Below, in pieces: positions 9,138 to 48,626 of a stretch of 64,000 nt of DNA (positions are counted from its first letter, which is position 1; the number at the start of each line of letters is the position of its first letter). Origin of the DNA: a virus; IMG/VR virus record IMGVR_UViG_3300023109_000011, positions 1 through 64,000 of that record; one strand, 5' to 3'. The notes under the pieces were generated by a model. It was not told where the DNA came from and did no database searches. It saw nothing but the letters and a program-made list of their open reading frames with translations. The position numbers and the translations under genes were made by a program.

Positions 9138-9150
9138 TTCTAGTGGTTTG

Positions 9151-10698: not shown

Positions 10699-10719
10699 TC
10701 TATATTCCTATATCAATAA

Positions 10720-11253: not shown

Positions 11254-11286
11254 GTTCGCGTTCTCCTTTAAACTAATTAGTATTTA

Positions 11287-13365: not shown

Positions 13366-13429
13366 ATTATTCTCCTTTAATTATTATCTATTAAACCTAG
13401 TAGTTTTTTTAATTAGTTATCACTAATTC

Positions 13430-13437
13430 TATTTATA
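13430..13437 (-). promoter_or_regulatory. T4-type late promoter TATAAATA upstream of gp18
   Basis: Exact consensus in the gp17-gp18 gap. Confidence 0.85.
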
Positions 13438-13449
13438 AAATCCAAGGGT

Positions 13450-31542: not shown

Positions 31543-31571
31543 ATTATAACATTATTTATGTCAACTGTCAA
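31543..31571 (-). promoter_or_regulatory. perfect-consensus sigma70 promoter with an embedded late-promoter variant
   Basis: TTGACA (31571-31566), 17 bp, TGtTATAAT (31548-31543), A-tract upstream; CATAAATA at 31560-31553 inside the spacer. Confidence 0.88.
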
Positions 31572-31579
31572 CTGTTTTT

Positions 31580-31912
31580 TTAAGACCAAGGAACCGCGCG
31601 TTGAGTCGTAAATGCCTTGTTGATTTTCTCCATGATCTTGGCATCATATCGAGCCATTTGATCTGAAGTAATAGTAGATTCGAGCCAGCCGATAACCGCT
31701 TCTTCAGTGAGAGCATCAAAGTCTACAAAGTCTCCGCTAGAAACAGCTTCTGCTGACATGATGGTGTACCCAAGGATAGTGGAACTATTATCGAATCCAT
31801 CTATCCCGGTACGTCTCCACCTAATCTTAACAACGGCATTTGAAAGGAGATCCCCATCACCATTAGTCTGGTCTCGGGTACTCATTTTAGTTATTTGCCA
31901 ACTGTATCTCAT
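31580..31912 (-). CDS. tail-fibre-associated small protein, paralogue 2
   Basis: YSW.I...RDQ.N.DGD.L..AVV...W...G.D, F..F..LTEE.V.GW shared with 31951..32361. Confidence 0.75.
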   Translation of the reverse strand: MRYSWQITKMSTRDQTNGDGDLLSNAVVKIRWRRTGIDGFDNSSTILGYTIMSAEAVSSGDFVDFDALTEEAVIGWLESTITSDQMARYDAKIMEKINKAFTTQRAVPWS

Positions 31913-31950
31913 ATCAATTCCTATTTAGTTGATATATTGAGTTGGGAGAA

Positions 31951-32361
31951 TTACTCTCCATCATCCGTTGGAGCAGGCTCAAGAGGTGCTGGTGGAACAG
32001 GTGTTACTGGCTCACCGCCCCAAGGCATTTCATGAACTTCTTCTTCTTGCTCTATATCGATTTGATTCATGATACGCTCATCGATGTGCTCTTTGTAAGG
32101 AGGATCGTTATTCACGACATTCTGAATCCAACCTAGAACATCTTCTTCTTGAAGAGATTCAAATGAAGTAAATTCACCAGCTGGAACTGCTGCTGCAGTG
32201 AAAGGAGTTGCACCAGCAAACTCACCTTGCTTTCCGTCGCTGTCTGTTCCAACTACTTTCCAATATGTTTGTACGACTGCTCCTTGGAGCGTGTCACCGT
32301 CTGCGTTAACTTGATCTCGCTTTTTGAGACCAGTAACTGACCATGTATACGTTAATGCCAT
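31951..32361 (-). CDS. tail-fibre-associated small protein, paralogue 1
   Basis: MALTYTWSVTGLK..DQ.N.DGD.L..AVVQTYW...GTD..G..G.F.GATPF; GGAG RBS; own late promoter. Confidence 0.78.
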   Translation of the reverse strand: MALTYTWSVTGLKKRDQVNADGDTLQGAVVQTYWKVVGTDSDGKQGEFAGATPFTAAAVPAGEFTSFESLQEEDVLGWIQNVVNNDPPYKEHIDERIMNQIDIEQEEEVHEMPWGGEPVTPVPPAPLEPAPTDDGE

Positions 32362-32418: not shown

Positions 32419-32604
32419 CTATTTATTAAAAAAAGACTGTTCATCTACATCATGCTTACCAATTGGGCATGTGTTTCCTTTTAGTCTCGCTTTGAGAGTC
32501 ATAATACATTTGCAGACATTGCATTGCCTAAGCTTTGCATTGTACTTTTCACAACTCTCGCATATCTCGATTTTGCGCTGGTATGTTTTTCTATCGACTA
32601 ACAT
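32419..32604 (-). CDS. small Cys-rich protein (DUF6171-like, putative metal binding)
   Basis: ICESC...QCNVCKC...KARL....CP.GKH; start uncertain (32604 or 32619); overlaps the end of the halogenase gene. Confidence 0.7.
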   Translation of the reverse strand: MLVDRKTYQRKIEICESCEKYNAKLRQCNVCKCIMTLKARLKGNTCPIGKHDVDEQSFFNK

Positions 32605-34078
32605 TGGCGCTATAATCATTTTCAAGCAATGCTTGTTGAACAAAGATATGCTTATTTTCTTTGTCGGTATCAAACTGCTTAGCGCAGTGTTCTTTGTTGA
32701 ATGTCATACTATCATACACATCTTTATATATGTCAGATGGTAGCATTCGTATTCCTTGCATCACCTGATACCAAGATGAAGCATTGAAAAAGCGATCAAT
32801 AATGTCAGCAGCACCTAGAGGATACTTAGACCATTTTGCTAAATCTTTTTGTAAACCAGGAGGTGCTTTTTCTACTGAGAATTTATTCCAAAACTCAGTG
32901 TCATTGCGTTCCGTTATATAGTGCAAGTAAACAAAATTATGAATCTCTTTTGAAATATCATTCCACTTTTCGTTAAACTGATCTCGATAAGTATCGTCTA
33001 AGTCAAGTAATAGATTAGGCATAATGATCGACTCAACAATTGACATTGAAGTTGAGAATATCGATGTAGCTTCAAGTGGTTCAATAAATCCAGCAGAAAG
33101 TCCTAATGCAATACAGTTACCTATCCAAGCTTTTTCGTAATAGCCTGATTCAAATTTAAAAACAGTGTCTGGTATTTTAGCGTTAGGAAATTTTTCAAGT
33201 ATTTCCTTTCGAACTTCTTCATCAGAAATAAAGCTGCTATCAAAAGTATATCCACACCCATAACGTTCTTGAGTAGGAATAACCCAGCACCATCCATATT
33301 TCATTGCTATTGATTCTGTATAAGGAGGTAATACATCTTCTTCATGTGGTATAATAAATGGTATTGCACGATCTACGGTTTTATAATCGTTAAAGTCAAT
33401 CCACTTGGGATTCAATTTAGAGATAATAGTTTTTCGAAATCCTGTACAATCATATACTATATCACATTCGTACTCATGATTTTTAGATAATAACTTTTGT
33501 ACTATATCACCATCGAGTACTACATCTTCAATAATATCATCAACTATTTTAATACCACGAGCACCACCTTGTTCTCTTAGAAAGGATGCTAGCATTTTAG
33601 CGTCAAAATGTAATGCAAAAGGTTCGACAATTTCTAAAGCATCATTCTGCATCATAAAAGGATTCTTACGATCTTTACACATCATATACTGTAATGTTGA
33701 TTCAGCAATATGCTCGTCTCGTTTGATTGATTCAAGTATTCGAATAGGAACATAGCTTTGTCTTATATTCGAAGGATGATCATGTAAGTCAGCATTGGAA
33801 TGAAAGATGTGATAATAATCTTCGCCATCACCGTTCCAGTTATCAAAACGAATCGCATGTTTTGTAGTAGCACTACAGAATCTTACTAGAGCCATATAAT
33901 CGATTTGAATCATATCTAATATATCGAGAATGTTAGGTACTGTTCCTTCACCTGCTCCTAACACACCTATTGCTGAGCTTTCAATTACTGTAACTTGACA
34001 ATCAGGTATATATCTTTCAGCAAAGAGTGCTGCAAGCCAACCGGCTGTGCCACCACCCACAATCACAACATTTTTCAT
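32591..34078 (-). CDS. flavin-dependent (tryptophan-type) halogenase
   Basis: FAD motif VGGGTAGW, GAGEGT, ATTK (position of catalytic Lys), HFDA, DCTGF, WCWVIP (WxWxIP), GFIEPLEATS, R.DTEFW. Confidence 0.9.
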   Translation of the reverse strand: MKNVVIVGGGTAGWLAALFAERYIPDCQVTVIESSAIGVLGAGEGTVPNILDILDMIQIDYMALVRFCSATTKHAIRFDNWNGDGEDYYHIFHSNADLHDHPSNIRQSYVPIRILESIKRDEHIAESTLQYMMCKDRKNPFMMQNDALEIVEPFALHFDAKMLASFLREQGGARGIKIVDDIIEDVVLDGDIVQKLLSKNHEYECDIVYDCTGFRKTIISKLNPKWIDFNDYKTVDRAIPFIIPHEEDVLPPYTESIAMKYGWCWVIPTQERYGCGYTFDSSFISDEEVRKEILEKFPNAKIPDTVFKFESGYYEKAWIGNCIALGLSAGFIEPLEATSIFSTSMSIVESIIMPNLLLDLDDTYRDQFNEKWNDISKEIHNFVYLHYITERNDTEFWNKFSVEKAPPGLQKDLAKWSKYPLGAADIIDRFFNASSWYQVMQGIRMLPSDIYKDVYDSMTFNKEHCAKQFDTDKENKHIFVQQALLENDYSANVSR

Positions 34079-34872
34079 TTATATTCTTTCCTATGCCAAA
34101 ACCAAGTCTTATATCTATTACGGCTTAATGTACCTTCGATCAGTTTGTCTGATTTTGTGAATTCAATGTTTTGTTCTGGTGTCATTATATGCTGGACTTC
34201 ATGCGTCCACTTTTCTCGTTTGAAAGGTATAATTTGAACCATAGGACTGCCACCTTTAATAATGAACTCGTCGCCAGGTTTACATTTCAACATAGCTGGA
34301 AATAAGATATTCGTCTGATAAACGTCAGTGTCAACTACACCAGATTGTACTTCCCACTTATCAATCCCTTGGTGTTGAGGATGTAAGAACATGCAAGAAA
34401 TACCGGGAGGTGTTTTCATAACCCAAGGATTAATAAACTTATAAACCTTATCTGCGCTATAACCTTGTTTCCAATAGGGATGCTCAGACGTTTGTGATCG
34501 AGCATGAAATCCAATTGGTTCATGACCATCTAATTCTTTTACACCGGTATGTATGCCTATAACTTCTTCACCAGAATCTGGATCTATTATACATTTAACT
34601 GCAATATCATAGGGGAAAGGAATGATATATCCACTCGTCATCATTTCACGAAATGGAATGCATCTTTTAACTGTAGGAGTATAAGCAGGCCGGATACTAT
34701 CTTCGACGAAGACGTGAGTTTTGGATTCTCTACCCGAGTAAGGTTTTTGATTCTTAAACCATTCAGGTATAAATTTCATCGCAGGCGCTGGCTCGTGAGC
34801 CATAGGTCCTAGATTTGAAGTGAAGGTCACTTCGTTTTTTCTTGTTAGCCAAGATTTCAAAAGACTAAACAT
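34075..34872 (-). CDS. DUF6065-like / dUTPase-like-fold phage protein
   Basis: P.PA...IPEWFK, TVKRC.PF....TSGYII, KFINPW..KTPPG.SC.F, GVVDTD.Y, G.P.VQIIPFKR; GGAG RBS supports start 34872. Confidence 0.6.
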   Translation of the reverse strand: MFSLLKSWLTRKNEVTFTSNLGPMAHEPAPAMKFIPEWFKNQKPYSGRESKTHVFVEDSIRPAYTPTVKRCIPFREMMTSGYIIPFPYDIAVKCIIDPDSGEEVIGIHTGVKELDGHEPIGFHARSQTSEHPYWKQGYSADKVYKFINPWVMKTPPGISCMFLHPQHQGIDKWEVQSGVVDTDVYQTNILFPAMLKCKPGDEFIIKGGSPMVQIIPFKREKWTHEVQHIMTPEQNIEFTKSDKLIEGTLSRNRYKTWFWHRKEYK

Positions 34873-34888
34873 AATATACTCCAAAAAA

Positions 34889-35269
34889 TTAGGTTGGTAC
34901 TATAGATTCCCCGCCTGATACGGTATTAATATCTATATTACCATTCAACCAATTATCTAGCATGACTTCAAGAGGTCCGGTCGTTTCATGAGCACCAAGT
35001 GCTTCCCACATTCTATAACCGTTTTCAAAATTTAATATTGAAGGAACAACAGGAGGCGCACATAAAGGAAGGGTAAGATCATCTGCTTCGAGCTTACAAA
35101 AATTAATGCCTGGATAATCGGCTACTATATTTTCAATTGCTTCTTCCCATGCAGCACAACCAGCACAGCCGGGATTAACCAGCATGACCGAATCTAATAT
35201 AAGAGTAGAACGATCTTCAGGGCCTCGTTTAGCCAGCAATTCTTCTGCAGTAACATAGGGTAAAGCCAT
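34889..35269 (-). CDS. thioredoxin-fold protein
   Basis: CAGC motif followed by a helix, cis-Pro-like VVP, FENG. Confidence 0.65.
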   Translation of the reverse strand: MALPYVTAEELLAKRGPEDRSTLILDSVMLVNPGCAGCAAWEEAIENIVADYPGINFCKLEADDLTLPLCAPPVVPSILNFENGYRMWEALGAHETTGPLEVMLDNWLNGNIDINTVSGGESIVPT

Positions 35270-35281
35270 AATATTTCCTTT

Positions 35282-35833
35282 TTATGTATAACCATTAGAG
35301 GTTGCTGTTACGCCATTATAATAGCATCTATTCACTGATACTTTCATATACGCATTACCACCACAACCATAATCTTTTTCCATGAAAAACATCCAAGCGC
35401 CATCGTAGTGAAAGACACCGACTCTACCGTTTTGGTTATTAGGATTCACGTTATTATTGTTTGTGCGACCTTCATAACTAAAACCACCCGGGCAATTAGC
35501 TGGAGTTCTGTAATTTGCGCTATTCGAGTTCCAATTCCAACACGGCCCATTTCCAATTTGAGCGGTGTTATTATAGAGTCTCCGAGTTGACGTATAACCG
35601 TACGTGCTAGTCCCTAAGTTGTATTGTCTGCCATCACCATATACCCGTCCACCTGAATCTTGAAATTCGTTCCATATTGAATATCTTTCGGCGGCAGTTT
35701 GTTCACCTAAAAACATATTGCTACTGTCTGTATTATAAACAATACACCAGCGATAACGCTCAGGTCTGTTGCCATCATTGCCTGGCCCGTATCGACTAAG
35801 ATAACGTTGACCTGATGGTAATACTCTGCTCAT
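35282..35833 (-). CDS. hypothetical Asn/Gly/Tyr-rich protein with five Cys (possible fibre-tip component)
   Basis: GAGG RBS; composition resembles the distal giant fibre. Confidence 0.65.
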   Translation of the reverse strand: MSRVLPSGQRYLSRYGPGNDGNRPERYRWCIVYNTDSSNMFLGEQTAAERYSIWNEFQDSGGRVYGDGRQYNLGTSTYGYTSTRRLYNNTAQIGNGPCWNWNSNSANYRTPANCPGGFSYEGRTNNNNVNPNNQNGRVGVFHYDGAWMFFMEKDYGCGGNAYMKVSVNRCYYNGVTATSNGYT

Positions 35834-35842
35834 TTTATTCCT

Positions 35843-36628
35843 CTACAATATGTTAAACTGAGAATATTTTGTAAACAAATCGTCGCCTAATACTTTTCTT
35901 GGATCTTGAGATATTTTCTCAATTTTAGGACGAACAACGTGAAGATCTTTTATTCCCCAGTTTTCATCCGGCTCCTCGAGGTATGTTTGTACATTTTCAA
36001 AATCATGTTTTGGAGGATCAAGTTCAAGATACTCCCATATATCGTTCATAGTTTGTTCTGTATTATTTATAAGATCATCGTAATTTACAATATGAACTAA
36101 ATGCGGAAACCTATCAATTGCGCCTTTACAACTTTCATAGCCATAGTCTTTAAAATTATTCCATATTTGCTCAGTGCGATTCTCAGTATTAATTTTTATG
36201 TTTTCTTTAAAAAGCTGAACGTCAACGTGGTTCTTAGGATCTTTATCCATTAAGGTAATAAACGACGTTAAAATGTCAGGAATAGGTCTATAGGTAACTA
36301 TTACTTTTGGTGTTGGGTTAATAAATGCTTCTATAGCTTGTATATTATAACCCCATCCTCGGCTTTTGTCAACTATATACTTCTTTTTTACCGGTGAGTA
36401 CCAACCTTCAAACATATACTTAAATATGCGCTGATTCATTTCATCCATGTCCCAGTCACCGCGATATCCATTTTCTTGCAACACACCATATAGATCATGC
36501 ATAACACGGTTCAACGGACTGGTCGCAGAGACATAAAATTCTGGATGCTGGGAAAGCAAGGAACCGAGTAAAGTAGATCCGGTCCTTGGCATTCCCGTAA
36601 GATAAAAATACCGACTCATATCAAACAT
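35843..36628 (-). CDS. sulfotransferase (Sulfotransfer_3-type)
   Basis: PAPS-loop GMPRTGSTLL, DKSRGW, R...DILTS, V.YDDL, HDFENV, LH.VR. Confidence 0.85.
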   Translation of the reverse strand: MFDMSRYFYLTGMPRTGSTLLGSLLSQHPEFYVSATSPLNRVMHDLYGVLQENGYRGDWDMDEMNQRIFKYMFEGWYSPVKKKYIVDKSRGWGYNIQAIEAFINPTPKVIVTYRPIPDILTSFITLMDKDPKNHVDVQLFKENIKINTENRTEQIWNNFKDYGYESCKGAIDRFPHLVHIVNYDDLINNTEQTMNDIWEYLELDPPKHDFENVQTYLEEPDENWGIKDLHVVRPKIEKISQDPRKVLGDDLFTKYSQFNIL

Positions 36629-36631
36629 AAT

Positions 36632-39600
36632 TTAACCCTTCAATAGTTGTTGTACCATTCCTTTCAATTCTTCAATTTGGTTGGCTTGACTATCGATTTG
36701 CTCTTGTTGTTCTTTAACTGCTTCAACTAAGAGACCAACCAGGTGTCCGTATTCAATAGAAAGAACATCTTCAATACCATCGTTATGAGCTGGTTTAGAT
36801 GCCGGTGCATTTGGATCATCACTTGTATTATCAGACGTGTCTTGTACAACAACAACTTCTGGAATAACTTCTTGAACTTCCTGAGCAATAAGACCAATAT
36901 CCTTATCACCCGAGTCTTTCCAGTTATATTCAACACCGCGAAGTTTCTTAACTTTATCTACAGCGTTTTCAATAGTAACAATATTCTCTTTTAGCCTTTC
37001 ATCAGAAGAGTAGAAGAAGCCTTGAGCCTGAATACCATTTGTACGAGTACGAAGTTTTTCAGAACCGTCGTGGTAAAGAATACAGTAAGAGTTGAGATCG
37101 AATCTCATCATCCATTCGTTATTAACGTCGTTGTACATACCAGCAACGCCGCCATTGTTGTGCATCATTACAACACGATCACCAATCGAGAATCCTTCGT
37201 ATCCGCCGCGTGACGCGCCATCAACACAGAATGAACCATAGTTACCATCAGGTGATCTTAATACAACACCATCATTCAGAGTAATACGACCCATTCGAGA
37301 AGTATTCTCTGTTCCTCGAATGTCAATTAACATGGCGGTGTTACTTCTGTAATATCGAAGACCGTTATCCTGAACAGTAGCATTGACATACATTGTTCCA
37401 CCTACATACCAGTTAATATATGTAGAATATCCAGACCTTGAATCTAAATGTAAGTTACCATTAGTTGTTGCAACAGAAGCATAAGAACCAGTCCAATGTC
37501 CGTTACCACCAACATACAGATATTGTCCCCAAGATGGGTTAGGTCCATGTAATGTACCACCTCGAATACGAAGGGCAGAGTTACTTGTTGAGTTAGGATC
37601 TAAGTAGTAGCCAGTATCGTTCCAATCATAATAAATTGGAGTACGAACATCAGAACTGAATACCGCTCTACTTGATATAGCAGCTCTAAATGAACCATTG
37701 TTAATAATCAACATACCATGGTCATTCAGTTGATTCGCACCACCTAGTCCACCAGCATTTGGATGTGACCAACCAATACCGTACATATTTGCAGCAGAGG
37801 TACCAGCAGAGTTCGGTCTATAAGAGGAACCCATTGCGAATACTAATTGTAATCTTGTAGAAGTATATGTTCCGGTTACACCTAATCCATAATTGTTAAA
37901 TGTGTGATAACCGTTTTGATTAGTGGTATTGATTATAGAAGTACTCGCCGGATCGATATAATAACCAGTATTATTAGTATCGTAATACCGGCCTGCATAC
38001 ATTGAACCACCGTTACCATTGTTTTCATCAAGTACCGGAATTGTTCTCCAAGTTCTCCAACCACCCCATGCACTTCTGAATCGTAAGTTGGTAATTGGTC
38101 CACCAACCATCTGCCAGCCATAACCACTTGTGTTAGAACTACGATAGTGATATGATTGAATGCCAACCCAGTGAGAAGTACCTGAAGGCTGGTTGCCTGG
38201 ATTAGACCAAGAATCAATAAAGCCTGAACCCCAAGTACTAACAACGTTCATGTCCTGGGTTCCCCAACCCATTGCACCAGTCCAATAGTTGGTATCTGAT
38301 GTTATTCGAGGACGTGCTCTATAGTACTCACCACTATTACGCGTATGGCCAGGCTGATTGATCCAAGCCATCGTACGGTTGTTAACACCTTCAAATCTTG
38401 TGCTGTGACCAGATGCTGGATCAATGTAGTAACCACTATTGTTTGAATCGTAGAAGATAGTACCGTAAATAGCACCATCACTACCAAAGTACTTGCTACC
38501 GTTCCAGTAGTTTTCTTTCAGAATGGCTCGGCCATTCATGTACATTTCATTTACGTTAAAGTAGAAGTTACTACGATCGGTGTAAATGTGTGCGTGAGAA
38601 CCGTTAGCCGGACCAAACTCGATGTATCCATAAGGAGTCTGGTGTCTCCATCCCCAAGAACCGCCATGTAAGTAGTATCCACTGTTTCCGTAATCAATAC
38701 TTGACAGTCGACTTCTTCCTGCTGGATCACAGAAGTAGTTCGAGTTATTTGAATCATAGAAGATATCAGCGTAAAGACCACCGGTGTTATTGCTGTTTTC
38801 TCCCATTACTGGAATTGTACGCCAAGTTCTAAATGATGACCAAGTACTACGGAATCTTAAGTTAGTAACTGGTCCACCAACCATCTGCCAACCATATCGA
38901 GCTGAACCATTAGTATAGTGGTATGCCTGCATTCCAACCCAGTGAGATGTACCTGAAGGCTGGTTGCCTGGATTACTCCAAGAATCAATAAAGCCTGAAC
39001 CCCAGTCGGCAACCGTGTTCATGTCAACACGGCTCCAACCCATTGCGCCGGTCCAGTAGTTCGTGTCACCTGTAATACGAGGACGTGCTTTGTAGTATTC
39101 AGCACTTGATCTTGTTTGACCAGATAGTGCCTGGAATGCCATTGTTAAGTTATCTACACCACGGAATCTTGAACTATTATCTGAAGCACCATTCCAACGA
39201 TAACCAGTATCATCTAAATCATAGAAGAGTGGAGCACGAGCAGAACCACGCATGACTGTATAGCCATAAGTAAATTCATTATAACTTCCATTCCAATAGT
39301 ATATCCAACCACGACTATTGTCGTGTATACCTACGTTATCGCCGCCAGTTGACATGAACACGTGGCGAGAACCGATACCCCAACCTGACCAGCCGTTTCG
39401 ACCAGTATTATATGTAGTTACGTTACCGTAAGAGTTACCACCTGCTTCTGGAGCCCACATTCCCTTTCCATAATCTTGGAAGTAGAATCCAGTACTGCCT
39501 TGAGCACGGAACCAGTTATTAGCGAGAACGTAGTGGAACTGAGACGTTGAATTAAAGTTTCCGTAATATCCAGTGTTGTCACGATCATAGAAAATCGGAG

Positions 39601-42600
39601 CTCGAATATCTGAGATGTGATCTAAGTAGTCAGTATTAATTCTGCTGTATGTCGTGTTTTGATAACGAACATCGAGCATTGTAGTGTTGTCAGAACTAAT
39701 TGAGTCACTATCAATAACAGTTCTTGCTTGCAATCTAATGTAGTCTGAAGAACCTAGACCATCGTTTTCAGAACCAATAACCATGGCTCCATTTTCACCA
39801 GTGTTATCATAGTCTGGATCATATGTAATGTAACCAAAGTCAGAAGGTGCATTAACACCTGAACGGAAGTAGAGTGATACCGGTTGATCGTTACCTGAGT
39901 GGAATTCAGCAGCAACATTACCCATGTACTCGGCAAGTCGCCCGCCGGCGTAAGCGGCTGATCCACCTGAATCACCTTCTCGACCTATGAACTGAGTACG
40001 ACCATAGAACTCAACTCGCTGTAATCTGGATGTACCATTAGGATCGAGATAACGACCTGTGTTATTAGTATCATAGAAGATTGGAGCACGGAATGATCCA
40101 AACGTACTAACATAACCAAGAGAGTTATTAATGTAGCCGTCGTATGCTAAGTACCATGCTTGTGTTGGGTAACTATCATTACCACCGATTGCTGCATACC
40201 AGCTTGATCTTCCACCGCCCCATCCACTTGCATACTTATAAAGTCCAGTGTTAACATGAGTGCGATAACCAGAACTATAAAGAGCAGTCTGGTGAGTAAG
40301 TGGTAAGTAACGACTTGTTCCACCGACATTGTAATCTCTATTACGAGTAGAAATTGGAGCGTTAGTCAATCCACTGATTGATGTTGACCAGTAATCTGTC
40401 GGATCATTAGCGTAGAATTGACCATTAGATGTTAATGTACTAACAACTTCTAATGTATTAAGTCTTGTATTTGAACGAGGATCAGTGTAGTAAGCACTAT
40501 CATTATAGTCATACATGATTGGAACATCAAGACGACCACTTATTAAGACCTGACCGTTACCACGAATAATTTGGTTCCAAGATCCACCGAATCCACCATC
40601 ACGGAAGATAATGTCTTCGTTACCTGACGTTGCAAATTCGAAGTGAGAATCATCAGACTCAGTTGCACGAATATATCCACGTAAGTTACCTGAACTTGTA
40701 TAGAAGTAAGCAGGTGCACCACCAAGATAGTTAATTCGATCTACACTCAGTGTATTCATTCTCGATGTTGAGTTAGGATCTGCGTAGTAGTTCGTGTTAT
40801 CACTATCATAGTAACGTTTTGCGTACATATCCCCAGTGTTAATATTCTGGTTGTATGTTGCAGTTACCTTCATCACTATCGTACGTTCTTTAGTACGACC
40901 TCCAGGCAGGCTAGAGTTTGTAATGTTAGTTACAAGGTTACGATCATCACCACCTGCGTCTCGTACGTGCACCGAGAAAGAGTTCCAGTAAGAAACACGT
41001 GGCCACCAGAAATGTAGTGTTCCGTTATATTGGAACACTTGCATGTCAGCAAAGCCAGGCTTACCAAAGTGCTGTCCAGAATAGTTGATAATAGTATCGT
41101 AGTACAAGTAACCCTGAGCAGTAAAGCTAAATGGTGGATCACCCGAGTAAGACTTACCTGTTGCTTCAAGTACGAACGAAGCACCGCTAGTTGCCGTCGC
41201 AGGAATACTTGTTGATACTAACGTACCTAATGTAAAGTCAGAACCTGAATGTCTATAAGTTCTTACATAATTTCCGCGGAGACGCAGATCATACAACTCA
41301 GATGTATTATCACCATGTATGTAGTAGTTTGTATTATTTCGATCATAGAAAATTGGAGCTCTAAACGAGTTTTCAGTATACACCTGTCGGTCATTTTGGA
41401 TCCACATAATGGAAACGTTATTACCGCTACTCCAACCACGACCAATACCATAGTGTGGGTTTGTTTGGTTAGGTGAATAACCGAAGTGTAATGATGTTGC
41501 ATTAGTACCAGCAATACCAATTACCCAATGCTTAAAGTTACCTGAAGAAGCATTTGCACTATCGTAAGCAGCAAATCTTAATGTTGGACCGTGAGTACCA
41601 TTACTAATCTGAGTCGACATAAGATTCAACTGAGGATACTGGCCTTTAATAACCAGATCCGGCCTGTTGAGCGCTGAGCCTTCCAAGATTCCGTTATATA
41701 AATTAGTTTCGTCACCAATATGTAATCTATGAACTATACGCTGTTGTAAGAATCTTGAAGTAGCATTTGGATTAGCATAGTAAGCAGTATCTTGGATGTC
41801 ATAGAATATCTGAGCTCTTGCGTCTCCAGCCATAACATATAAGTTACTACTTTCAACACGAGTGTGTGTATCACCTCGACCGACAGAGAATAGCAGAGAA
41901 CTTAAATCTTCGTTGTTGTAGAAACGAGTACCACCGTAGACTGCCTGAGCACCCATACGAATACCTGTATGCCACCTTAGATCAAGCTTGGTGTAGTTGC
42001 CACCGTAGTTTTCCATGTTGGTGCCGATGAAATAATTGCCTGCAGCATTACTATCACCACCACCAAACATTAACCTTGCACCAGTGGTGCTACTGTATGG
42101 GTTGTTTTGGAATGTACCACCAATTACAACTTGACCAGCAGTTCGCATACTATTAATTCGCGATTCTGCGTGAGGATTCGTGTAGTAAGCAGTGTCATCA
42201 GTATCGTAGAAAATTGGAGCTCTTACACTTGCAGCCGATTCAATAATACCTTGAGCATCAATACGATCGAGTGCGCGGATATCATCTGCTAACAAATTAG
42301 ATTCAGCATTACGTCGCTTAAGCATAATACCACCGTATTGGCGAAGAGCGCCACCGGCATTATAGTTCATTAAGATACGAATTCTTACATAGTAACAACC
42401 ACCGCCGTCTGAACCATTATAAGGTGTATGTGATGATGGTATTGTTGTATGACCACGTTGTGTCTGCCAACTAGTGTTCGTAAAATTGCTACCGCCAGAT
42501 ACGAAGTATGTTGTACCTGTGTTACCAGCAATAGCTCTCTTCTGACTATCAAATCTTTCAATACCGTAGTATAATAAACCACCTGAGCCTGAAATTAGTT

Positions 42601-45600
42601 TATGGGAAATCTCACCATAAATCTCTTCACCTGGGGCAACAGGAATATAATCAGAGTAGAATGTTCTATAAGCGGCCGATTGAAGAACATATGATCCAGC
42701 AAATGGACCGTCTGTTGTTCTTACAAATTCTGATGTCGTACCTGTAAGAGCGCTTTCGTTATCTGCCATTGGCTTAATAACACGCTTGTCAAAGTATTCT
42801 GTAGCATCAAATAGTACTAAGTCTGCTCCACCTGAACCGTATGACTTAATAAGACCAATGTTTTCGTTTCCACCATTTAGTAAGAAGTTACCAGCAGAAA
42901 CATTACCGATGAAGTGTGCATTACCGTTATCAAGGTCAATACTTGCTCTTAATTGACCTGAACCTACAAATACAATCTCATTTGGATTAGAAGTACTAAA
43001 GTGTGAATAAGCAGGATTATCATTACCAGCCCAGAAGATACCCCAGTTGCTAGCTGTTTGCCAGATCCAGTGAGTATAATCTTGAGCTCTTAATAGAACA
43101 TTATTACTGCCATTGCCCGAAGTTTGGAATCCTAATCTATCGTAAATGCCATTGACGCGAACGGCCGTGCTTGTGTTTCCACTTGCAAAGTTTCCATAAT
43201 AGTTCGTGTCATTTGAATCATAATAGATTGGTGCTCGCATTTGGTTATTAGCGAGGAAATAACCATTTTCTGTTTCAGCCTGTTTTGTGCCATTAAAGTG
43301 AAGCTCAGTAGATCCACCACGACGCCAGATTGTCATCCATTCATTGTCGATGTCATTGTAGATGCCGGCCTCATCAGCACTGCTTGACATGAATACAAAT
43401 CTGTCAGCAATAGAATAACCTTGCCATCCACCTTTACCACTACCATGAACAGACATTGAACCGTAATTACCGCCCGGCCAATCCATGTAAGTATCAGTAC
43501 TATTATCGTATGCAAAATAAATTCGGTTTGTTCTCAGCGTAGCAAGACGAGAAGTACTGTTTGGATCCACAAAATAGTTAGTGTCATTTCGATCATAGAA
43601 GAGCGGTGCTCGCATATCGCCAGTAACCTGAAGGATACCTGACGCTGCAGTAAAGAACATTCGAGCGGCACCAGAGCCGTAACCAACGTTACCCCATTCA
43701 AATTCTTGTGCATCAGATGCTAGTGTGCCTGATGTTCTATTGTATAAACGAGACTGCCAAGAACCATAATTTGTAGTACTTACACCGAAGTAAATATTGG
43801 TAGCGCCGCGTACTGCAACAGGGCCAGCAATATCTAAAGTAGCATTAGTTACAATACTCGATGTCGAGCCTACCGTTAGTTGATTAAGTACTGAACGGCT
43901 AGCGAAGTCACCATAGTATGCAGTGTTATTGCTGTCATAGAATATTGGTGCTCTAACGTCGCTATAATGACTCAAGTAATCAGTATTGATTATTGCAAGC
44001 TCAGTCAGTGCTGATCCATTCTTACGATAGAATCTAAAGTCACCACCATATTCCATAAATGAAATTCTATCAAGCAGAGCATATCCGGTTGTAGCATTAG
44101 TTGGATAACCTCTAAAGATGATACCGTGGTATTCATCATTGTGACCGTTTAATAAGCCATAAGATCCATTTGAAATAGTAAGTCTGTTAAGTCTATTATC
44201 AGCAAGTCCACTTCCATTAGGATTTAAACGATATGTGGTATCGTCCATATCGTAGAAGACTTGAGTCGTTATTTGTGATGACTTAAATTTCTCGTAACCA
44301 GTTCCTGGGTTATTTCTTATTGCGATCGTACCATCTGATTCAATAGCAATGTTCGATGCTACAACACCACCCCAATGGAATCCAAGATAAGGAGGAGTTG
44401 CTGCTCCTGTTGCTGTGTAATTACTTTCTCTTAATTCGATTGAAGCAGTAGAATAACCTGTGCCTGTTGAAGATGAAGCAAACTCAAAGTTGCCGAGTAG
44501 TTTAGCACCGTCGCCAGGTTCAATGTAATATGCTGTAGAATTAGAATCATAGTAACGAGGTGCATAAACATTGACTGCAAAGTCTGCAGAATTATTATCG
44601 ATGTTGAAGCGCTGGGTGCCGTTTGTCCAAATTCTAAATGTATCGTTTGCTTCAAAACCAAAGAATGTATTTGTATCACCACGATGACGAATGTAGTCGT
44701 CGATGTCGATACGATTCATCTGAGATGTGCCAGCAAAGTCACCATAATAGTTTACATCATCTGAATCATAAACTATACTAAAGTATGCAGAGCCGGTCGA
44801 GTATAATGCTTTGTTATTTCGTACGCGGAGGTACGTGGCATCGGTCATATACCAACCGCCGCCCCATCCGAATCCTAATTCTTCGTCTTTCAGGAATGAA
44901 GATGTACCACGTCCAAATACAATAGCATCATCATTACCATTAAGTTGAATACCACCATTGACATGTAGTTTGCTATTTGTTATACTACCAACTAATGGAG
45001 TATTATCCATTGAGGTGTATGTTACAGAAGAACCGCCAACTATGACGTTATTATTAGTTTCCTCAGCAACAAGAATTTCACCACCACCGGTATCCCAGAA
45101 TCCTGCGGTTGTACCTGCTGGTGGAACAATGTAGAAGTTTCCGCTTGAGTCACCTCTAAACTGAGTTCCGTTAGCACCATCATGGTAGAAATTAATGTAT
45201 CGATTACCGTTAGCATAAGGATTGGCGCTAGCATCGATAATGTTCATGTACATCAATGCGTATCCACCGGCCGAGTTACCACTAATTCCTACCGTGGTAT
45301 TTTGACCAGAAGCATATGAACCGTGGTTCATTAACGAGATGCCACCGTTGCCTGTGCTATCATCCCATCTTGCAGCATCGGAGACATTACCGATTAACAC
45401 CTTACCATTCAATGTGGCAGCGGTGTCTGTAGAAGCAGGATCTACAAAGTAAGCGCCATCGCTTCGATCGACAAATCTATTTGCAAGTAAGTCGCTAAAG
45501 ACTGTTGTATTTGTGTTGGTAATGTTTACACGTTCGACATTATCAGTAACAAAAGTAATACTATCATCGGCATCAAAACCTAGATAAGTAGTCGTGTCAC

Positions 45601-48586
45601 CGCGGTGTCGCATGTAAGTATCAATAGCAAGAGCTGACAATTGTGATGTGCCAGCAAAGTCACCATAATAAAGAGTATCGTTTTGATCGTAGAAAGCAGG
45701 TGAACGCATTTGGTTATTTGCTAAGACATAACCATTTTGAACTCTTAATCTTTCTGCACCACCTGTAACAACTGCAAATTGGTCAGCTGCTGGGAAATGA
45801 ATGTAAGTATTAGTATCTCCATCGTGAATAATCTCACCAACTAAACTAATATCATTTACACGAGATGTACTCGCTGGATCCATGTAGTAAGTAGCATTGC
45901 TACTATCGTAATATCTTCCAGCATATAGATTTGGGAAAATACCATCAAGACTTGAAGTGACGTAAGTCGTATCAATTAAAAGTCTTTCAGTACCATCAGT
46001 TGCAAATCGTATATTATTATTCGATGGGAATCCGAGATAGGTAGTTGTATTACCACGATGTCTTACATAATCATCAATGTCTACAGTATTTAATTGTGAG
46101 TCACCAGCAGGGTCTGCAAAATAATTAGTATCATCAGCATCAACAAATCTCGCTGCAGTAACATCGCCTGTAAATGTACCACTACCACCTGAAACGTCTC
46201 CACCAAAGTCACCATCACCAGTAACATCAAGGTCACCGGTAATATCTACACCAGCATCATTAACTTCTAATCTTTGAGCACCACCGGTTTGAACTTCCCA
46301 ACGATTTGCGCCTGGGAAATTAAGGAACGTGTCGGTATCACCATCGTGAACAACGGTTCCTGTCATTGTAATTGTATTTACGCGAGAGCCAGAAGCTGGA
46401 TCTAAATAGAAGGTAGCATCGTTGCCATCGTAGAAAATAGGTGCTGTAACACTTACCGTTGAATCAAATGCTACTTTAGCTGATATGCTTGCGTTACTAA
46501 TATACAAACGCTCAGCACCACCAGTGGCTAATCGTATTTGATCAGCACCAACAAACCCGAAGTAAGTATCCGTATCGCCATTGTGACGAATATAAGAATC
46601 AAGGTCAATTTGACTCATTACGGAGGTACCATGGAAGTCTCCGTAATAGTTGTTATCGTTTGAATCGTAGAAGACTGGTGCATAAACATTTACAGTAAAG
46701 TCTGCACTATTATTATCTACACTGTATCGAAGAGTACCGCCGGTGTATACTCCGAAAGTATCAGCAGATGGGAATGTAATATAAGTGTCTGCATCACCGT
46801 TGTGACTAATAGAACCTTCCAATGCGATTCCATTAATTACAGATGTACCAGCAAAATCTCCATAGAAGCTACGATTATCTGAATCATAGTAAACAGGTGC
46901 TTGTACTTCTGTAAGTGCAGTGATGTAATCACCGGTGATACTATTTGAAGCACTCAGATTCGTTACAAATATTCCACTGGTGTTTGCAGTTAATTGAGTA
47001 GAGCCACCAGCATCTACACCAATAGAGTCAGCACCAAATGTGACCTTTGTATCGACATCATTGTTATGAATGATAGCATCGTTAACAACGAGATTAGGAA
47101 CATACGTATCAAGGTTAGCTAAGACTCTTGTGTTGTTAATATCTAACTGTGTATTTCCACCAGTCTGTAAAAGAATATTGTCTGTTTCAAAACTTAATCT
47201 TGTATCTGTATCGCCGTTATGGAAAAGATTATCATCAATTCCAATAGCGTGCATTGTTGAATCTGCATTTGGATTTACCACATAACTATTATTGTCTGCA
47301 TCTATAAATCGTTGACCAATAACATCTGTTCCAGCCGATACAGTAGTACCAGCCGATACAGTAGTACCAGCTGTTACTGAACCGAGTGTTGCTTCAATAT
47401 TACCGGCCGAAGCTGTAATGTTACCCGCGGTTGCGGTTATGTCTACACCTGCAGTTACATCAGTCGTAGCAATTACGTCCCGACCTGCGCTTACGTCTCG
47501 CCCTACAACCCAGTCATCATCACTGGTCGATCGAGCTGCATAGTTAAACGATGCATTTAAGAAACCAATAGTACCAGTTGTTGAGTATATTGCTCGATCT
47601 TGTCCAGATCCATTAAATACGATCTGCGCAGGACCACCATCATCCCCGATAGTAAGGTCGCCTTCAATGGTTATATTACCTGTGGCTGTATCATCTGCGT
47701 CACTACGAAGGAACTGAGAGGCTTCTAAGCCATCGACAGTGTCTGCATCAAAGCCATTTCCTGAGCCTTCATCAGCAGTCGTAATGATTCGACCTAAGTC
47801 TAGAAGCGAGCCGTTTCCTGCAAGCGAAATAAGTTTCCAGTAATCTGTACTCTCGTCCCATAGAATTTTTGGATTGTTTAAAGTACCACGCTCAATTTCA
47901 ATACCACTATTTTCTGATGGGCTTGAACCTGTGTAATTACTATTAAGAGTAATAATATTATCAGCAAGTAAAATTTCTTCTGTATTAACAGTAGTTGTTG
48001 TACCTGAAACAGTAAGGTTACCGCTGACCGTAAGACTCTGTTGAATGGTATAGTTACCAGCCATGATGTCATCGACATCAGAACGAACGAGTTGAATTCC
48101 TTCAAGACCATCAACAGTATCTGCATCAAACCCATTTCCTGAGCCTTCATCAGCAGTTGTAATAATACGATTGTTATCAATGGTGGTGGTTGCTAATCCG
48201 TAGAATCGGTTACCCGAAGAACTGATTGCAAGCCGAGGAGAGTTGTTATAGAGTATACGAACACCAGGTGTGGAGTCGTAGAATATGATTCCGTTGTTTT
48301 GCTGAGAGTTGACAAGTTTATAGTCGCCTGTACCCGAGTTGAGAATCTGGAGTGAATCAGAGTCTCCTACAAATTCTGCGATAGGTGGGGAAAACAAACT
48401 GCCGGCACTATTAGTAACTTTTAATGATGGAGTGCTAAAATCGTTTTGATCGATTACCACTTCACCCGAGAACTTAGATTCTCCAGTTACCTGTAGTTTT
48501 TGCCCGTTGTCGGTGGTTGTTCCAATGACAACGTTTTGCGACGTTTGTAGTCCATTTTTGACTATAAACTTTTTATCATTTGCCAT
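36632..48586 (-). CDS. giant tail fibre / adhesin (~3984 aa) with C-terminal peptidase S74 intramolecular chaperone
   Basis: Probable start MANDKKFIVKNGL at 48586; ~26 copies of (AP)xFYDxxxTxYYxDP, 9 copies of HxGD(T)xT; C-terminal SSDERLKENI...LRGV.YNW...GLIAQEV...LLVEAVKE coiled coil. Confidence 0.88.
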   Translation of the reverse strand: MANDKKFIVKNGLQTSQNVVIGTTTDNGQKLQVTGESKFSGEVVIDQNDFSTPSLKVTNSAGSLFSPPIAEFVGDSDSLQILNSGTGDYKLVNSQQNNGIIFYDSTPGVRILYNNSPRLAISSSGNRFYGLATTTIDNNRIITTADEGSGNGFDADTVDGLEGIQLVRSDVDDIMAGNYTIQQSLTVSGNLTVSGTTTTVNTEEILLADNIITLNSNYTGSSPSENSGIEIERGTLNNPKILWDESTDYWKLISLAGNGSLLDLGRIITTADEGSGNGFDADTVDGLEASQFLRSDADDTATGNITIEGDLTIGDDGGPAQIVFNGSGQDRAIYSTTGTIGFLNASFNYAARSTSDDDWVVGRDVSAGRDVIATTDVTAGVDITATAGNITASAGNIEATLGSVTAGTTVSAGTTVSAGTDVIGQRFIDADNNSYVVNPNADSTMHAIGIDDNLFHNGDTDTRLSFETDNILLQTGGNTQLDINNTRVLANLDTYVPNLVVNDAIIHNNDVDTKVTFGADSIGVDAGGSTQLTANTSGIFVTNLSASNSITGDYITALTEVQAPVYYDSDNRSFYGDFAGTSVINGIALEGSISHNGDADTYITFPSADTFGVYTGGTLRYSVDNNSADFTVNVYAPVFYDSNDNNYYGDFHGTSVMSQIDLDSYIRHNGDTDTYFGFVGADQIRLATGGAERLYISNASISAKVAFDSTVSVTAPIFYDGNDATFYLDPASGSRVNTITMTGTVVHDGDTDTFLNFPGANRWEVQTGGAQRLEVNDAGVDITGDLDVTGDGDFGGDVSGGSGTFTGDVTAARFVDADDTNYFADPAGDSQLNTVDIDDYVRHRGNTTTYLGFPSNNNIRFATDGTERLLIDTTYVTSSLDGIFPNLYAGRYYDSSNATYYMDPASTSRVNDISLVGEIIHDGDTNTYIHFPAADQFAVVTGGAERLRVQNGYVLANNQMRSPAFYDQNDTLYYGDFAGTSQLSALAIDTYMRHRGDTTTYLGFDADDSITFVTDNVERVNITNTNTTVFSDLLANRFVDRSDGAYFVDPASTDTAATLNGKVLIGNVSDAARWDDSTGNGGISLMNHGSYASGQNTTVGISGNSAGGYALMYMNIIDASANPYANGNRYINFYHDGANGTQFRGDSSGNFYIVPPAGTTAGFWDTGGGEILVAEETNNNVIVGGSSVTYTSMDNTPLVGSITNSKLHVNGGIQLNGNDDAIVFGRGTSSFLKDEELGFGWGGGWYMTDATYLRVRNNKALYSTGSAYFSIVYDSDDVNYYGDFAGTSQMNRIDIDDYIRHRGDTNTFFGFEANDTFRIWTNGTQRFNIDNNSADFAVNVYAPRYYDSNSTAYYIEPGDGAKLLGNFEFASSSTGTGYSTASIELRESNYTATGAATPPYLGFHWGGVVASNIAIESDGTIAIRNNPGTGYEKFKSSQITTQVFYDMDDTTYRLNPNGSGLADNRLNRLTISNGSYGLLNGHNDEYHGIIFRGYPTNATTGYALLDRISFMEYGGDFRFYRKNGSALTELAIINTDYLSHYSDVRAPIFYDSNNTAYYGDFASRSVLNQLTVGSTSSIVTNATLDIAGPVAVRGATNIYFGVSTTNYGSWQSRLYNRTSGTLASDAQEFEWGNVGYGSGAARMFFTAASGILQVTGDMRAPLFYDRNDTNYFVDPNSTSRLATLRTNRIYFAYDNSTDTYMDWPGGNYGSMSVHGSGKGGWQGYSIADRFVFMSSSADEAGIYNDIDNEWMTIWRRGGSTELHFNGTKQAETENGYFLANNQMRAPIYYDSNDTNYYGNFASGNTSTAVRVNGIYDRLGFQTSGNGSNNVLLRAQDYTHWIWQTASNWGIFWAGNDNPAYSHFSTSNPNEIVFVGSGQLRASIDLDNGNAHFIGNVSAGNFLLNGGNENIGLIKSYGSGGADLVLFDATEYFDKRVIKPMADNESALTGTTSEFVRTTDGPFAGSYVLQSAAYRTFYSDYIPVAPGEEIYGEISHKLISGSGGLLYYGIERFDSQKRAIAGNTGTTYFVSGGSNFTNTSWQTQRGHTTIPSSHTPYNGSDGGGCYYVRIRILMNYNAGGALRQYGGIMLKRRNAESNLLADDIRALDRIDAQGIIESAASVRAPIFYDTDDTAYYTNPHAESRINSMRTAGQVVIGGTFQNNPYSSTTGARLMFGGGDSNAAGNYFIGTNMENYGGNYTKLDLRWHTGIRMGAQAVYGGTRFYNNEDLSSLLFSVGRGDTHTRVESSNLYVMAGDARAQIFYDIQDTAYYANPNATSRFLQQRIVHRLHIGDETNLYNGILEGSALNRPDLVIKGQYPQLNLMSTQISNGTHGPTLRFAAYDSANASSGNFKHWVIGIAGTNATSLHFGYSPNQTNPHYGIGRGWSSGNNVSIMWIQNDRQVYTENSFRAPIFYDRNNTNYYIHGDNTSELYDLRLRGNYVRTYRHSGSDFTLGTLVSTSIPATATSGASFVLEATGKSYSGDPPFSFTAQGYLYYDTIINYSGQHFGKPGFADMQVFQYNGTLHFWWPRVSYWNSFSVHVRDAGGDDRNLVTNITNSSLPGGRTKERTIVMKVTATYNQNINTGDMYAKRYYDSDNTNYYADPNSTSRMNTLSVDRINYLGGAPAYFYTSSGNLRGYIRATESDDSHFEFATSGNEDIIFRDGGFGGSWNQIIRGNGQVLISGRLDVPIMYDYNDSAYYTDPRSNTRLNTLEVVSTLTSNGQFYANDPTDYWSTSISGLTNAPISTRNRDYNVGGTSRYLPLTHQTALYSSGYRTHVNTGLYKYASGWGGGRSSWYAAIGGNDSYPTQAWYLAYDGYINNSLGYVSTFGSFRAPIFYDTNNTGRYLDPNGTSRLQRVEFYGRTQFIGREGDSGGSAAYAGGRLAEYMGNVAAEFHSGNDQPVSLYFRSGVNAPSDFGYITYDPDYDNTGENGAMVIGSENDGLGSSDYIRLQARTVIDSDSISSDNTTMLDVRYQNTTYSRINTDYLDHISDIRAPIFYDRDNTGYYGNFNSTSQFHYVLANNWFRAQGSTGFYFQDYGKGMWAPEAGGNSYGNVTTYNTGRNGWSGWGIGSRHVFMSTGGDNVGIHDNSRGWIYYWNGSYNEFTYGYTVMRGSARAPLFYDLDDTGYRWNGASDNSSRFRGVDNLTMAFQALSGQTRSSAEYYKARPRITGDTNYWTGAMGWSRVDMNTVADWGSGFIDSWSNPGNQPSGTSHWVGMQAYHYTNGSARYGWQMVGGPVTNLRFRSTWSSFRTWRTIPVMGENSNNTGGLYADIFYDSNNSNYFCDPAGRSRLSSIDYGNSGYYLHGGSWGWRHQTPYGYIEFGPANGSHAHIYTDRSNFYFNVNEMYMNGRAILKENYWNGSKYFGSDGAIYGTIFYDSNNSGYYIDPASGHSTRFEGVNNRTMAWINQPGHTRNSGEYYRARPRITSDTNYWTGAMGWGTQDMNVVSTWGSGFIDSWSNPGNQPSGTSHWVGIQSYHYRSSNTSGYGWQMVGGPITNLRFRSAWGGWRTWRTIPVLDENNGNGGSMYAGRYYDTNNTGYYIDPASTSIINTTNQNGYHTFNNYGLGVTGTYTSTRLQLVFAMGSSYRPNSAGTSAANMYGIGWSHPNAGGLGGANQLNDHGMLIINNGSFRAAISSRAVFSSDVRTPIYYDWNDTGYYLDPNSTSNSALRIRGGTLHGPNPSWGQYLYVGGNGHWTGSYASVATTNGNLHLDSRSGYSTYINWYVGGTMYVNATVQDNGLRYYRSNTAMLIDIRGTENTSRMGRITLNDGVVLRSPDGNYGSFCVDGASRGGYEGFSIGDRVVMMHNNGGVAGMYNDVNNEWMMRFDLNSYCILYHDGSEKLRTRTNGIQAQGFFYSSDERLKENIVTIENAVDKVKKLRGVEYNWKDSGDKDIGLIAQEVQEVIPEVVVVQDTSDNTSDDPNAPASKPAHNDGIEDVLSIEYGHLVGLLVEAVKEQQEQIDSQANQIEELKGMVQQLLKG
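38037..39100. repeat. internal duplication of a ~100-aa domain in the giant fibre
   Basis: 38037-38330 and 38811-39100 both encode ARPRIT.DTNYWTGAMGW...WGSGFIDSWSNPGNQPSGTSHWVG...YGWQMVGGP.TNLRFRS.W..WRTIPV; two ~27-bp identical nucleotide tracts. Confidence 0.9.
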
Positions 48587-48626
48587 ACGGTTCACTCTCC
48601 CCAGATTGGCGGTTTAAATTATTCAA

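Follow-up and report, generated by a model that had tools for sequence, protein, structure and literature searches.

The stretch of DNA analysed here (the window) takes in positions 1 to 64,000 of a 98-kb viral record of IMG/VR that is estimated to be 46% complete, and its source is an uncultured clade of marine T4-like myoviruses. The minus strand of the window carries a T4-like tail and fibre module, several of whose proteins match PHROG tail-fibre and baseplate-wedge families, including a collagen-like one of 1,829 aa. A giant tail fibre gene is followed there, at its 3' side, by genes for a sulfotransferase (ST), a small protein (p183), a thioredoxin-fold protein, a DUF6065 protein, a halogenase and a zinc-ribbon protein, all on the same strand and where the initial annotation had put them. 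The main features are the following.

36632..48595, minus strand: giant tail fibre of 3,987 aa, with a probable ATG start at 48586
36851..37006, minus strand: Peptidase_S74 intramolecular chaperone domain at the fibre C-terminus, residues 3864-3915 (PF13884, E 8.3e-18)
35843..36628, minus strand: PAPS-type ST of 261 aa (PF13469, 2.7e-17; phrog_27463, 8.5e-56)
35282..35833, minus strand: p183, a Tyr/Asn/Gly-rich protein of 183 aa with four invariant Cys and no family match
34889..35269, minus strand: thioredoxin-fold protein, partner of p183, with an invariant GCxxC and a cis-Pro-type PPxxPS
34075..34884, minus strand: protein of the DUF6065 / Syn9 gp43 family with an invariant Cys75 (phrog_7084), with a probable ATG start at 34872
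32591..34078, minus strand: flavin-dependent halogenase of the Trp-halogenase family (PF04820, 3.2e-101, 339.9 bits)
32419..32604, minus strand: Cys6 zinc-ribbon-like protein, about 61 aa from Met24, in an ORF reaching to 32673 (DUF6171, weak; phrog_13558)
31580..32361, minus strand: pair of DUF7936 genes (31951-32361 and 31580-31912) with which the cassette ends, syntenic in the related loci L090 and L004
28464..31571, minus strand: three-gene cassette of p348, p411 and a cytidylyltransferase-cupin, with its own perfect sigma70 promoter

The gaps between the genes from the fibre to DUF6065 measure 3, 9, 12 and 4 bp, and overlaps of 4 bp and 14 bp follow, the last figure assuming that the Cys-rich gene starts at Met24, as its homologues do. 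The distances (-14 to +12 bp) agree with the tight packing (gaps of at most ~16 bp) described in the initial annotation, as do its placement of the ST start 3 bp past the fibre stop and its overlap of the Cys-rich gene with that of the halogenase. Its enzyme assignments were borne out as well, the ST by PF13469, the halogenase by PF04820 and the DUF6065 protein by HMM and ESM Atlas comparison. Neither the APS kinase family nor a flavin reductase family was found across the 98-kb record (~46% complete), which extends the earlier remark that the window holds no gene for PAPS synthesis or flavin reduction.

Relatives with an ST 55-67% identical to that of the window were found at one IMG/VR locus (L004) and on six metagenome contigs (L087-L092). 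The six-gene block is kept at 41-67% identity in L004, L088, L089 and L090 and partly in L087, L091 and L092. The synteny with L090 covers eleven genes: the fibre C-terminus, ST, p183, the thioredoxin-fold protein, DUF6065, halogenase, zinc ribbon, the two DUF7936 genes, p348 and p411. Wherever upstream DNA is present (L087, L088, L090 and L092), the gene directly upstream carries an S74 domain at its end, so that these diverged loci all preserve the physical link to an S74-terminated fibre. All these loci belong to one clade and therefore demonstrate maintenance under divergence and no repeated independent association. The cassette is made of three separable modules, namely the ST, p183 with the thioredoxin-fold protein, and DUF6065 with the halogenase and the zinc ribbon. 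The earlier view of the six genes as one system is not supported: p183 and its partner occur without either enzyme in Vibrio phage Va2, and the DUF6065/halogenase/zinc-ribbon trio recurs without fibres.

The fibre scored 64.9 bits against PF13884 (cut-off 22), and its C-terminus matches PHROG tail-fibre families. It contains a repeated joint motif, aP[IV][FY]YDxN[DN]TxYYxDPxxTS, which was found in 21 copies by the strict pattern [FY]YDxxDxx[YF]Y, against 0.085 in shuffled sequence, and in 23 by a looser FYD pattern; the motif reported initially is real, while the ~26 copies ascribed to it were slightly too many. The description of the distal fibre as rich in Trp and Tyr stands, with Trp concentrated in residues 3001-3500 (25 W), Tyr in residues 2501-3500 and the distal third rich in both. 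The FYD motif looks like an invariant, evenly reused joint between variable domains, in the manner of structural, probably buried residues.

Judged by its sequence, the ST is a member of the sulfotransferase family PF13469 (Sulfotransfer_3), which it matches at 64.2 bits (cut-off 27; 62.9 bits in the genome search), and carries both PAPS-binding motifs. Among 19 homologues the positions R15, G17 and T19 of the PAPS loop PRTGSTLL and R114 and S122 of the 3'-phosphate motif are invariant. An NCBIfam match of the ST to NoeE was discarded as trivial, covering the P-loop only. The nearest solved sequences to the profile of the 19 homologues are TPST1/2 (E 4e-6 to 3e-3), ahead of the CurM sulfotransferase, in an alignment confined to the two PAPS-binding segments. 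The catalytic Glu of the TPSTs follows the PAPS loop and is Glu99 of TPST2. Against TPST1, HMMER treats the second Glu of 'CGEeT' as inserted with respect to the ST profile, in a weak stretch (16 bits) of a single alignment, and an invariant Thr-Ser-Pro of the ST family lies directly after the position of this insertion. The likeness to TPST1/2 and to bacterial RaxST thus consists of the shared Pfam family, the 5'-phosphosulfate loop and the 3'-phosphate motif, whereas the catalytic Glu is not aligned, and the ST is at most a candidate member of the tyrosylprotein class.

These features bear on the proposal that the ST is of tyrosylprotein type and sulfates the Asp-flanked Tyr of the ~21 FYD motifs, with the halogenase acting on distal Trp and Tyr. 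The coupling of the ST to the fibre gene, the reality and Tyr-richness of the motif and the rank of TPST1/2 as closest solved sequences are all in keeping with it. So is the distribution of FYD fibres, which were seen in the window clade only (in the window, as loose copies in L090, and in L004 as a downstream 1,731-aa S74 fibre with four strict copies), the distribution outside the clade being judged from a tblastn search with one segment of the fibre and from counting the motif in a few fibres of isolates. Such co-occurrence at the level of a clade, however, amounts to a single evolutionary event, and the TPST likeness stops at the PAPS segments, the catalytic Glu facing a gap. Moreover, the fibre of L088 has only the S74 domain in common with that of the window and no FYD motif in its last 455 aa. 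The expected co-occurrence of the enzymes with FYD fibres is accordingly seen in the window, L090 (loosely) and L004 but not near the fibre end of L088; because L088 keeps the cassette behind a different distal fibre, the cassette is tied in this clade to S74 fibre ends and not demonstrably to the FYD motif. Since the motif behaves as a joint and is missing near the end of the L088 fibre, we regard sulfation of the FYD tyrosines as very unlikely.

Two features inside the ST gene concern its transcription and that of the genes behind it.

36344..36372, minus strand: perfect extended sigma70-type promoter, TTGACA-N17-TATAAT, within the ST gene and 5' of p183, overlying the VDKSRGWGYNI codons
36064..36071, minus strand: TATAAATA, a T4-type late-promoter-like motif inside the ST gene, weak alone

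Perfect extended sigma70 promoters number 5 in the window against 0.027 expected; besides the one in the ST gene, one precedes p348 (31543-31571) and three are antisense inside the upstream fibre genes. The VDKSRGWGYNI motif that houses the first is conserved, and L090 has a perfect sigma70 promoter elsewhere in its own ST gene, in the codons for LLTYRSIPDII. The genes from p183 through the zinc ribbon therefore very probably have a host-type promoter of their own. Co-transcription of the enzymes with the fibre, as it had been proposed, may hence be retained for the ST, which is coupled to the fibre across the 3-bp gap, but not for the genes downstream of it. No terminator-like sites were found on the coding strand between the six genes. 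The motif TATAAATA occurs 7 times in the window against 5.2 expected, which is not above chance, and therefore late promoters are not established. The sigma70 sites before p183 and p348 suggest that expression of these genes may be independent of late fibre synthesis.

With 24 clusters among 5.8 billion proteins, p183 belongs to a small family, and its exact sequence recurs on 31 contigs. Its AF2 model (pLDDT 82.8) gave no usable match by Foldseek against PDB or by a wide VIA search (best Z 2.8), nor did PDB profile search and ESM Atlas; the sole structural match is one viral model. No relation of p183 was detectable to the window fibre's own domains (best E 0.06), to the gp38-like adhesin of S-SRM01 or to Syn9 gp40. 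In all six clade loci long enough to tell, p183 adjoins the ST, and in L092 p183 paralogues stand on both sides of it. The thioredoxin-fold assignment of its partner derives from the GCxxC and PPxxPS motifs, invariant in 6 homologues including that of phage Va2; Pfam gave only a sub-threshold match to Phosducin, itself a thioredoxin fold. The sole isolate homologue of p183 is that of Va2, directly after a 1,128-aa protein with an S74 domain at its end, and directly 3' of p183 lies a Va2 'thioredoxin' 34% identical to that of the window. Phage Va2 was absent from both the ST and the halogenase search results. Because Va2 has the fibre(S74)-p183-thioredoxin unit without the ST, this unit appears to be the older one, into which the ST was inserted later in the marine clade.

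We infer that p183 and its partner form a fibre-associated accessory, either a tip or adhesin or an assembly factor, with disulfides set by the thioredoxin-fold protein, and p183 is a candidate acceptor at least as good as the fibre. The position of p183 recalls the gp38 adhesin that follows gp37 in phages T2 and S16: p183 too is small, is encoded directly after a distal fibre gene and belongs to a lineage-specific, fast-evolving family. Unlike gp38, to which it has no sequence or fold similarity, it has four invariant Cys and a thioredoxin-fold partner of its own, and the window fibre ends in a self-cleaving S74 chaperone.

The halogenase retains the intact GxGxxG, Lys and WxWxIP motifs noted initially, which in motif alignment of 9 phage halogenases correspond to the invariant positions G8/G10/G13, K73 and G262-W263-x-W265-x-x-P268, along with E333/E336 (the EPLE Glu). 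Its C-terminal substrate module is divergent and short (495 aa in all). Its PDB relatives (E 1e-61 to 8e-41) include VirX1, which was reportedly characterised in 2019. We know of no viral flavin halogenase whose natural substrate has been established. VirX1 itself has a large open active site and, as had been stated, no known natural substrate (PMC8407142), and in the literature the halogenases of cyanophages have counted as orphan genes since 2005 (PMC1079782, PMC2984593).

The DUF6065 protein had no match in Pfam, including none to a dUTPase family. Its assignment comes from ESM Atlas neighbours that carry DUF6065 and from the family HMM, which matches Syn9 gp43 at 5e-27. The family is large and mostly viral (3,088 representatives), and Cys75 is invariant in 80 sequences. 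The AF2 model (pLDDT 90.5) is a predicted dUTPase-like barrel: in VIA it matched dUTPases at Z 9.7, and the top 22 matches were all dUTPase or dCTP deaminase, well above the unrelated rows. The stretch 'GVVDTD' presumably resembles dUTPase motif III. Sequence-profile search found solved relatives neither of this protein nor of p348. The protein had also been a candidate for the missing flavin reductase, which was rejected because its fold is dUTPase-like.

In a survey of 80 IMG/VR halogenase loci (30-44% identity), DUF6065 lay within 10 kb in 21, often adjacent, and the zinc ribbon in 5; zinc ribbons near halogenases were seen in L203, L205, L209, L233, L234 and S-SRM01. A fibre-like ORF (at least 600 aa, rich in Gly/Ser/Thr/Asn/Ala) was present within 5 kb in about 10 of the 80 loci and an S74 domain within 10 kb in 3, the usual neighbours being 2OG oxygenases, a DUF2061 membrane protein, a nuclease and an APS-kinase/nucleotidyltransferase fusion. 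Halogenases stand among fibre genes in independent lineages too: in S-SRM01, where the gene lies between a tail-fibre gene and a gp38-like adhesin gene with the zinc-ribbon homologue next, and in Syn9, where it lies 3' of fibre and fibre-assembly genes; relatives of the ST likewise adjoin fibre-type genes. The halogenase of P-SSM2 adjoins fibre-assembly genes and that of HTVC008M lies between terminase genes. In general, halogenases are only sometimes linked to fibres.

The Syn9/Syn10-type neighbourhood, to which VirX1 (PDB 6QGM) belongs, is the closest known parallel to this module, since there too a halogenase adjoins a dUTPase-fold protein with a conserved Cys, after fibre and fibre-assembly genes; in the window the two genes overlap by 4 bp. 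The window cassette differs in having a single halogenase and no 2OG dioxygenase, where that neighbourhood has a tandem array of several 2OG/JmjC dioxygenases (2OG-Fe(II) families were absent from the window genes between 19041 and 36628), and in that the module is joined to an ST and a Cys4-protein/thioredoxin pair directly behind a giant S74 fibre. The Syn9 gp41-gp54 halogenase neighbourhood has been published by Iyer, Abhiman, de Souza and Aravind (2010, PMC2938197), who took its dioxygenase, halogenase and dUTPase-fold genes as secondary-metabolite genes. By extension, the window cassette might make a halogenated and/or sulfated amino-acid-derived metabolite or a modified nucleotide or base, its place behind the fibre being a hot-spot accident. 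The dUTPase-like fold of DUF6065 and its occurrence in haloarchaeal viruses next to a ribonucleotide reductase gene point in this direction, as do the halogenation of many free aromatics by VirX1 (PMC8407142), the lack of a nearby fibre-like gene in most halogenase loci and the sigma70 promoters of the cassette itself. Yet no scaffold-building enzyme (NRPS, PKS or ATP-grasp) was found in the cassette, the p183/thioredoxin pair has no obvious role in a metabolite pathway, and the place behind an S74 fibre persists through ST identities of 55-67% and differing distal domains. A small-molecule product appears to us possible, though on the unlikely side.

More distant relatives of the ST offer a different context. 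A scan of viral contigs with the single ST sequence gave no matches, an alignment query being needed. At 36-41% identity, relatives occur at more than 70 IMG/VR loci with a constant pattern: an S74 fibre, RCC1-repeat proteins, a TPR protein and a small oxygenase precede the ST, and 3' of it lie genes for a methyltransferase-GT2 fusion and an RXYLT1-like protein, then p348 and a protein with the same N-terminus as p411. The ST island of S-SRM01-type phages, at this same level of identity, begins after the S74 fibre; in L005 and S-SRM01 the genes at its flanks encode a Methyltransf_24-GT2 fusion, an RXYLT1-like protein, a glycosyltransferase and an epimerase. At 25-32% identity, genes resembling APS kinase and nucleotidyltransferase often follow directly 3', which would amount to a built-in PAPS supply. 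The commonest Pfam families among 107 dereplicated immediate neighbours of these distant STs are APS_kinase, RCC1, a Gly-rich domain and collagen. In L224 an ST adjoins a halogenase and in L139 a DUF6065 homologue adjoins an ST.

Such neighbours could mean that the ST is a carbohydrate ST which, together with the p348, TPR-methyltransferase and cytidylyltransferase cassette, acts on a host polysaccharide or a virion glycan. If the target were a host polysaccharide, the outcome would be exclusion or receptor masking. About 40 IMG/VR loci have the ST in company with p348 (conserved and propeller-like by motif) and the N-terminus of p411 (a TPR protein with a methyltransferase-like part), and the glycan-type genes around the STs of L005 and S-SRM01 fit the same idea. 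In the window itself a cytidylyltransferase/mannose-6-P-isomerase-type cupin lies 7 kb downstream, and P-SSM2-type cyanophages carry LPS-type gene clusters (PMC1079782). Against this, no glycosyltransferase was recognised near the cassette in the window, the 25 most frequent Pfam families of the 107 distant-ST neighbours include just one of glycosyltransferases, and the ST of the window clade has been displaced from p348 to a place between the fibre and p183. We therefore consider action on a glycan by such a cassette unlikely.

The reading that we tentatively favour, while granting it somewhat less than an even chance, is that the enzymes would tailor the adsorption apparatus, either the fibre or p183. 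A conserved accessory cassette of three modules is fixed at the 3' end of an S74-terminated long tail-fibre gene, and on this reading the PAPS-dependent ST, translationally coupled to the fibre gene, would take PAPS from the host and transfer sulfate to a hydroxyl of some component of the adsorption apparatus, the likeliest acceptors being p183 or the distal fibre domains. The sulfate might sit on the protein or on a glycan that the protein bears and would alter the charge of the receptor-binding end, and the halogenase module would use host-reduced flavin on an aromatic substrate, possibly in the same proteins. What the sequences show are the gene identities, catalytic motifs, synteny and modularity, while each of these substrates is inferred. 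Tailoring is favoured because the position behind S74 fibres is kept while the distal fibre domains change, because the ST strictly adjoins p183, and because separate lineages, too, have ST and halogenase genes among genes of fibre type. The predicted catalytic motifs of ST and halogenase, all intact, also speak for it, as do the neighbours of the distant STs, enriched in APS-kinase-like, RCC1, Gly-rich and collagen-like genes and not in glycosyltransferases, the p183 and thioredoxin genes behind the S74 fibre of Va2 and the start of the S-SRM01-type ST island after an S74 fibre.

Several points count against tailoring. All of the links are of gene order, and most of the supporting loci come from few clades and are hence non-independent. 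In marine T4-like phages the fibre region is a known hot spot of insertion. The module with the halogenase lies mostly away from fibre-like genes and its DUF6065 partner has the fold of a nucleotide enzyme; perfect sigma70 promoters stand upstream of p183 and p348; the ST of S-SRM01-type loci has a methyltransferase-GT2 fusion, an RXYLT1-like protein and an epimerase at its flanks; and p183 has no recognisable adhesin fold. That the phage actually sulfates, and perhaps halogenates, its own adsorption apparatus, in the distal fibre domains or p183, we would accordingly call improbable.

A precedent for tailoring may be found in bacteria, where Iyer et al. (2010, PMC2938197) predicted that operons of an ST and PAPS synthetase serve to hydroxylate and then sulfate tail-collar and collagen-like proteins. 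As in those operons, a P-loop ST lies in the window beside a fibre-type protein, there the proposed substrate, and the distant phage relatives of the ST even have the APS-kinase-like and nucleotidyltransferase-like genes right after it. Unlike them, the window belongs to a phage, has no hydroxylase that could supply the acceptor hydroxyl, would take its PAPS from the host, and places the ST next to an S74 fibre and p183. What is new at this locus is the combination of a fibre-coupled ST, a p183/thioredoxin pair and a halogenase module without dioxygenases. Our literature search found no report of a sulfated phage protein, and a proteomics paper of 2025 on modifications in marine phages mentions neither sulfation nor halogenation (PMC12014285).

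From this point of view, the cassette narrows the search for a substrate to candidates that can be expressed, namely p183 and the distal fibre domains, and nature supplies two controls, since Va2 has p183 and the thioredoxin without the enzymes and L088 has the cassette behind a different fibre. If tailoring of the virion is false, the cassette would be a further case of enzymes parked in a fibre-region hot spot. If the phage does sulfate or halogenate its own adsorption apparatus, no sulfated virion protein would have been described earlier for a bacterial virus, and the VirX1-type halogenases would gain their long-missing natural substrate; virion tailoring would also add a chemical layer to host-range determination in abundant marine phages.

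Distant phage homologues of the sulfotransferase, the PAPS-type gene that directly follows the giant fibre gene in the window, have APS-kinase-like (P-loop) and cytidylyltransferase-like genes directly 3' of them, and stop and start codons overlap between the homologues and these downstream genes.

L124, 1947-3597: sulfotransferase, APS-kinase-like and cytidylyltransferase-like genes
L160, 5888-7538: the same three genes
L111, 2173-3746: sulfotransferase and a fused APS-kinase-like/cytidylyltransferase-like gene
L118, 243-1816: sulfotransferase and the same fused gene

Such an array looks like a self-contained cassette for PAPS supply and sulfation. The same APS-kinase-like/nucleotidyltransferase fusion also lies two genes upstream of the halogenase in L184 (2351-3112) and about 20 other IMG/VR loci (L171, L175, L177, L186, L190, L199 and others), with a DUF2061 membrane protein gene standing between the fusion and the halogenase; no sulfotransferase was found by HMM in these loci.

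Small DUF7936 proteins repeatedly adjoin fibre genes ending in the Peptidase_S74 (S74) chaperone domain (31580-32361 in the window, 4636-5004 in L004 and 13819-14142 in L066). Positions 8374-13744 of Synechococcus phage S-SM2 (L250) carry a tail-fibre gene with genes for three 2OG-Fe(II) oxygenases and one ferrochelatase immediately behind it, and then a second, small fibre gene; this enzyme run is a further enzyme block within a fibre module. The Cys6 zinc-ribbon motif of the cassette gene at 32419-32604 may be a module common to several tailoring enzymes, since it also matches cyanophage DNA (hits H107-H111; Sf-FS3, metaG-MbCM1, P-RSM1) whose annotation is 2OG-Fe(II) oxygenase or prolyl 4-hydroxylase. 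Tailed viruses of haloarchaea carry homologues of the DUF6065 protein at ~30% identity, namely Halorubrum phage HF2 (L168, 6860-7744) and about 48 other records, between a ribonucleotide reductase gene and a baseplate/fibre block.

Five perfect extended sigma70 promoters (GTTGACA-N17-TATAATA) occur in the window, against 0.027 expected.

50551, 52382 and 53456, + strand: sigma70 promoters
36372 and 31571, - strand: sigma70 promoters

Three of the five are directed antisense into the upstream fibre genes, where they may drive antisense transcripts, and two of these three share ~45 nt of near-identical flanking sequence.

Paralogues of p183, the 183-aa Cys4 protein of the cassette, bracket the sulfotransferase on both sides in L092 (810-2359) and L091, one paralogue type having 15 inserted residues and an extended C-terminus. 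In Vibrio phage Va2 (L249, MW073017.1; 4571-8843), an S74-terminated 1,128-aa protein is followed by homologues of p183 (29% identity) and then of its CxxC thioredoxin-fold neighbour (34%). Va2 gave no match in either the sulfotransferase or the halogenase search, and it is a cultured system that would allow study of the p183/thioredoxin pair.
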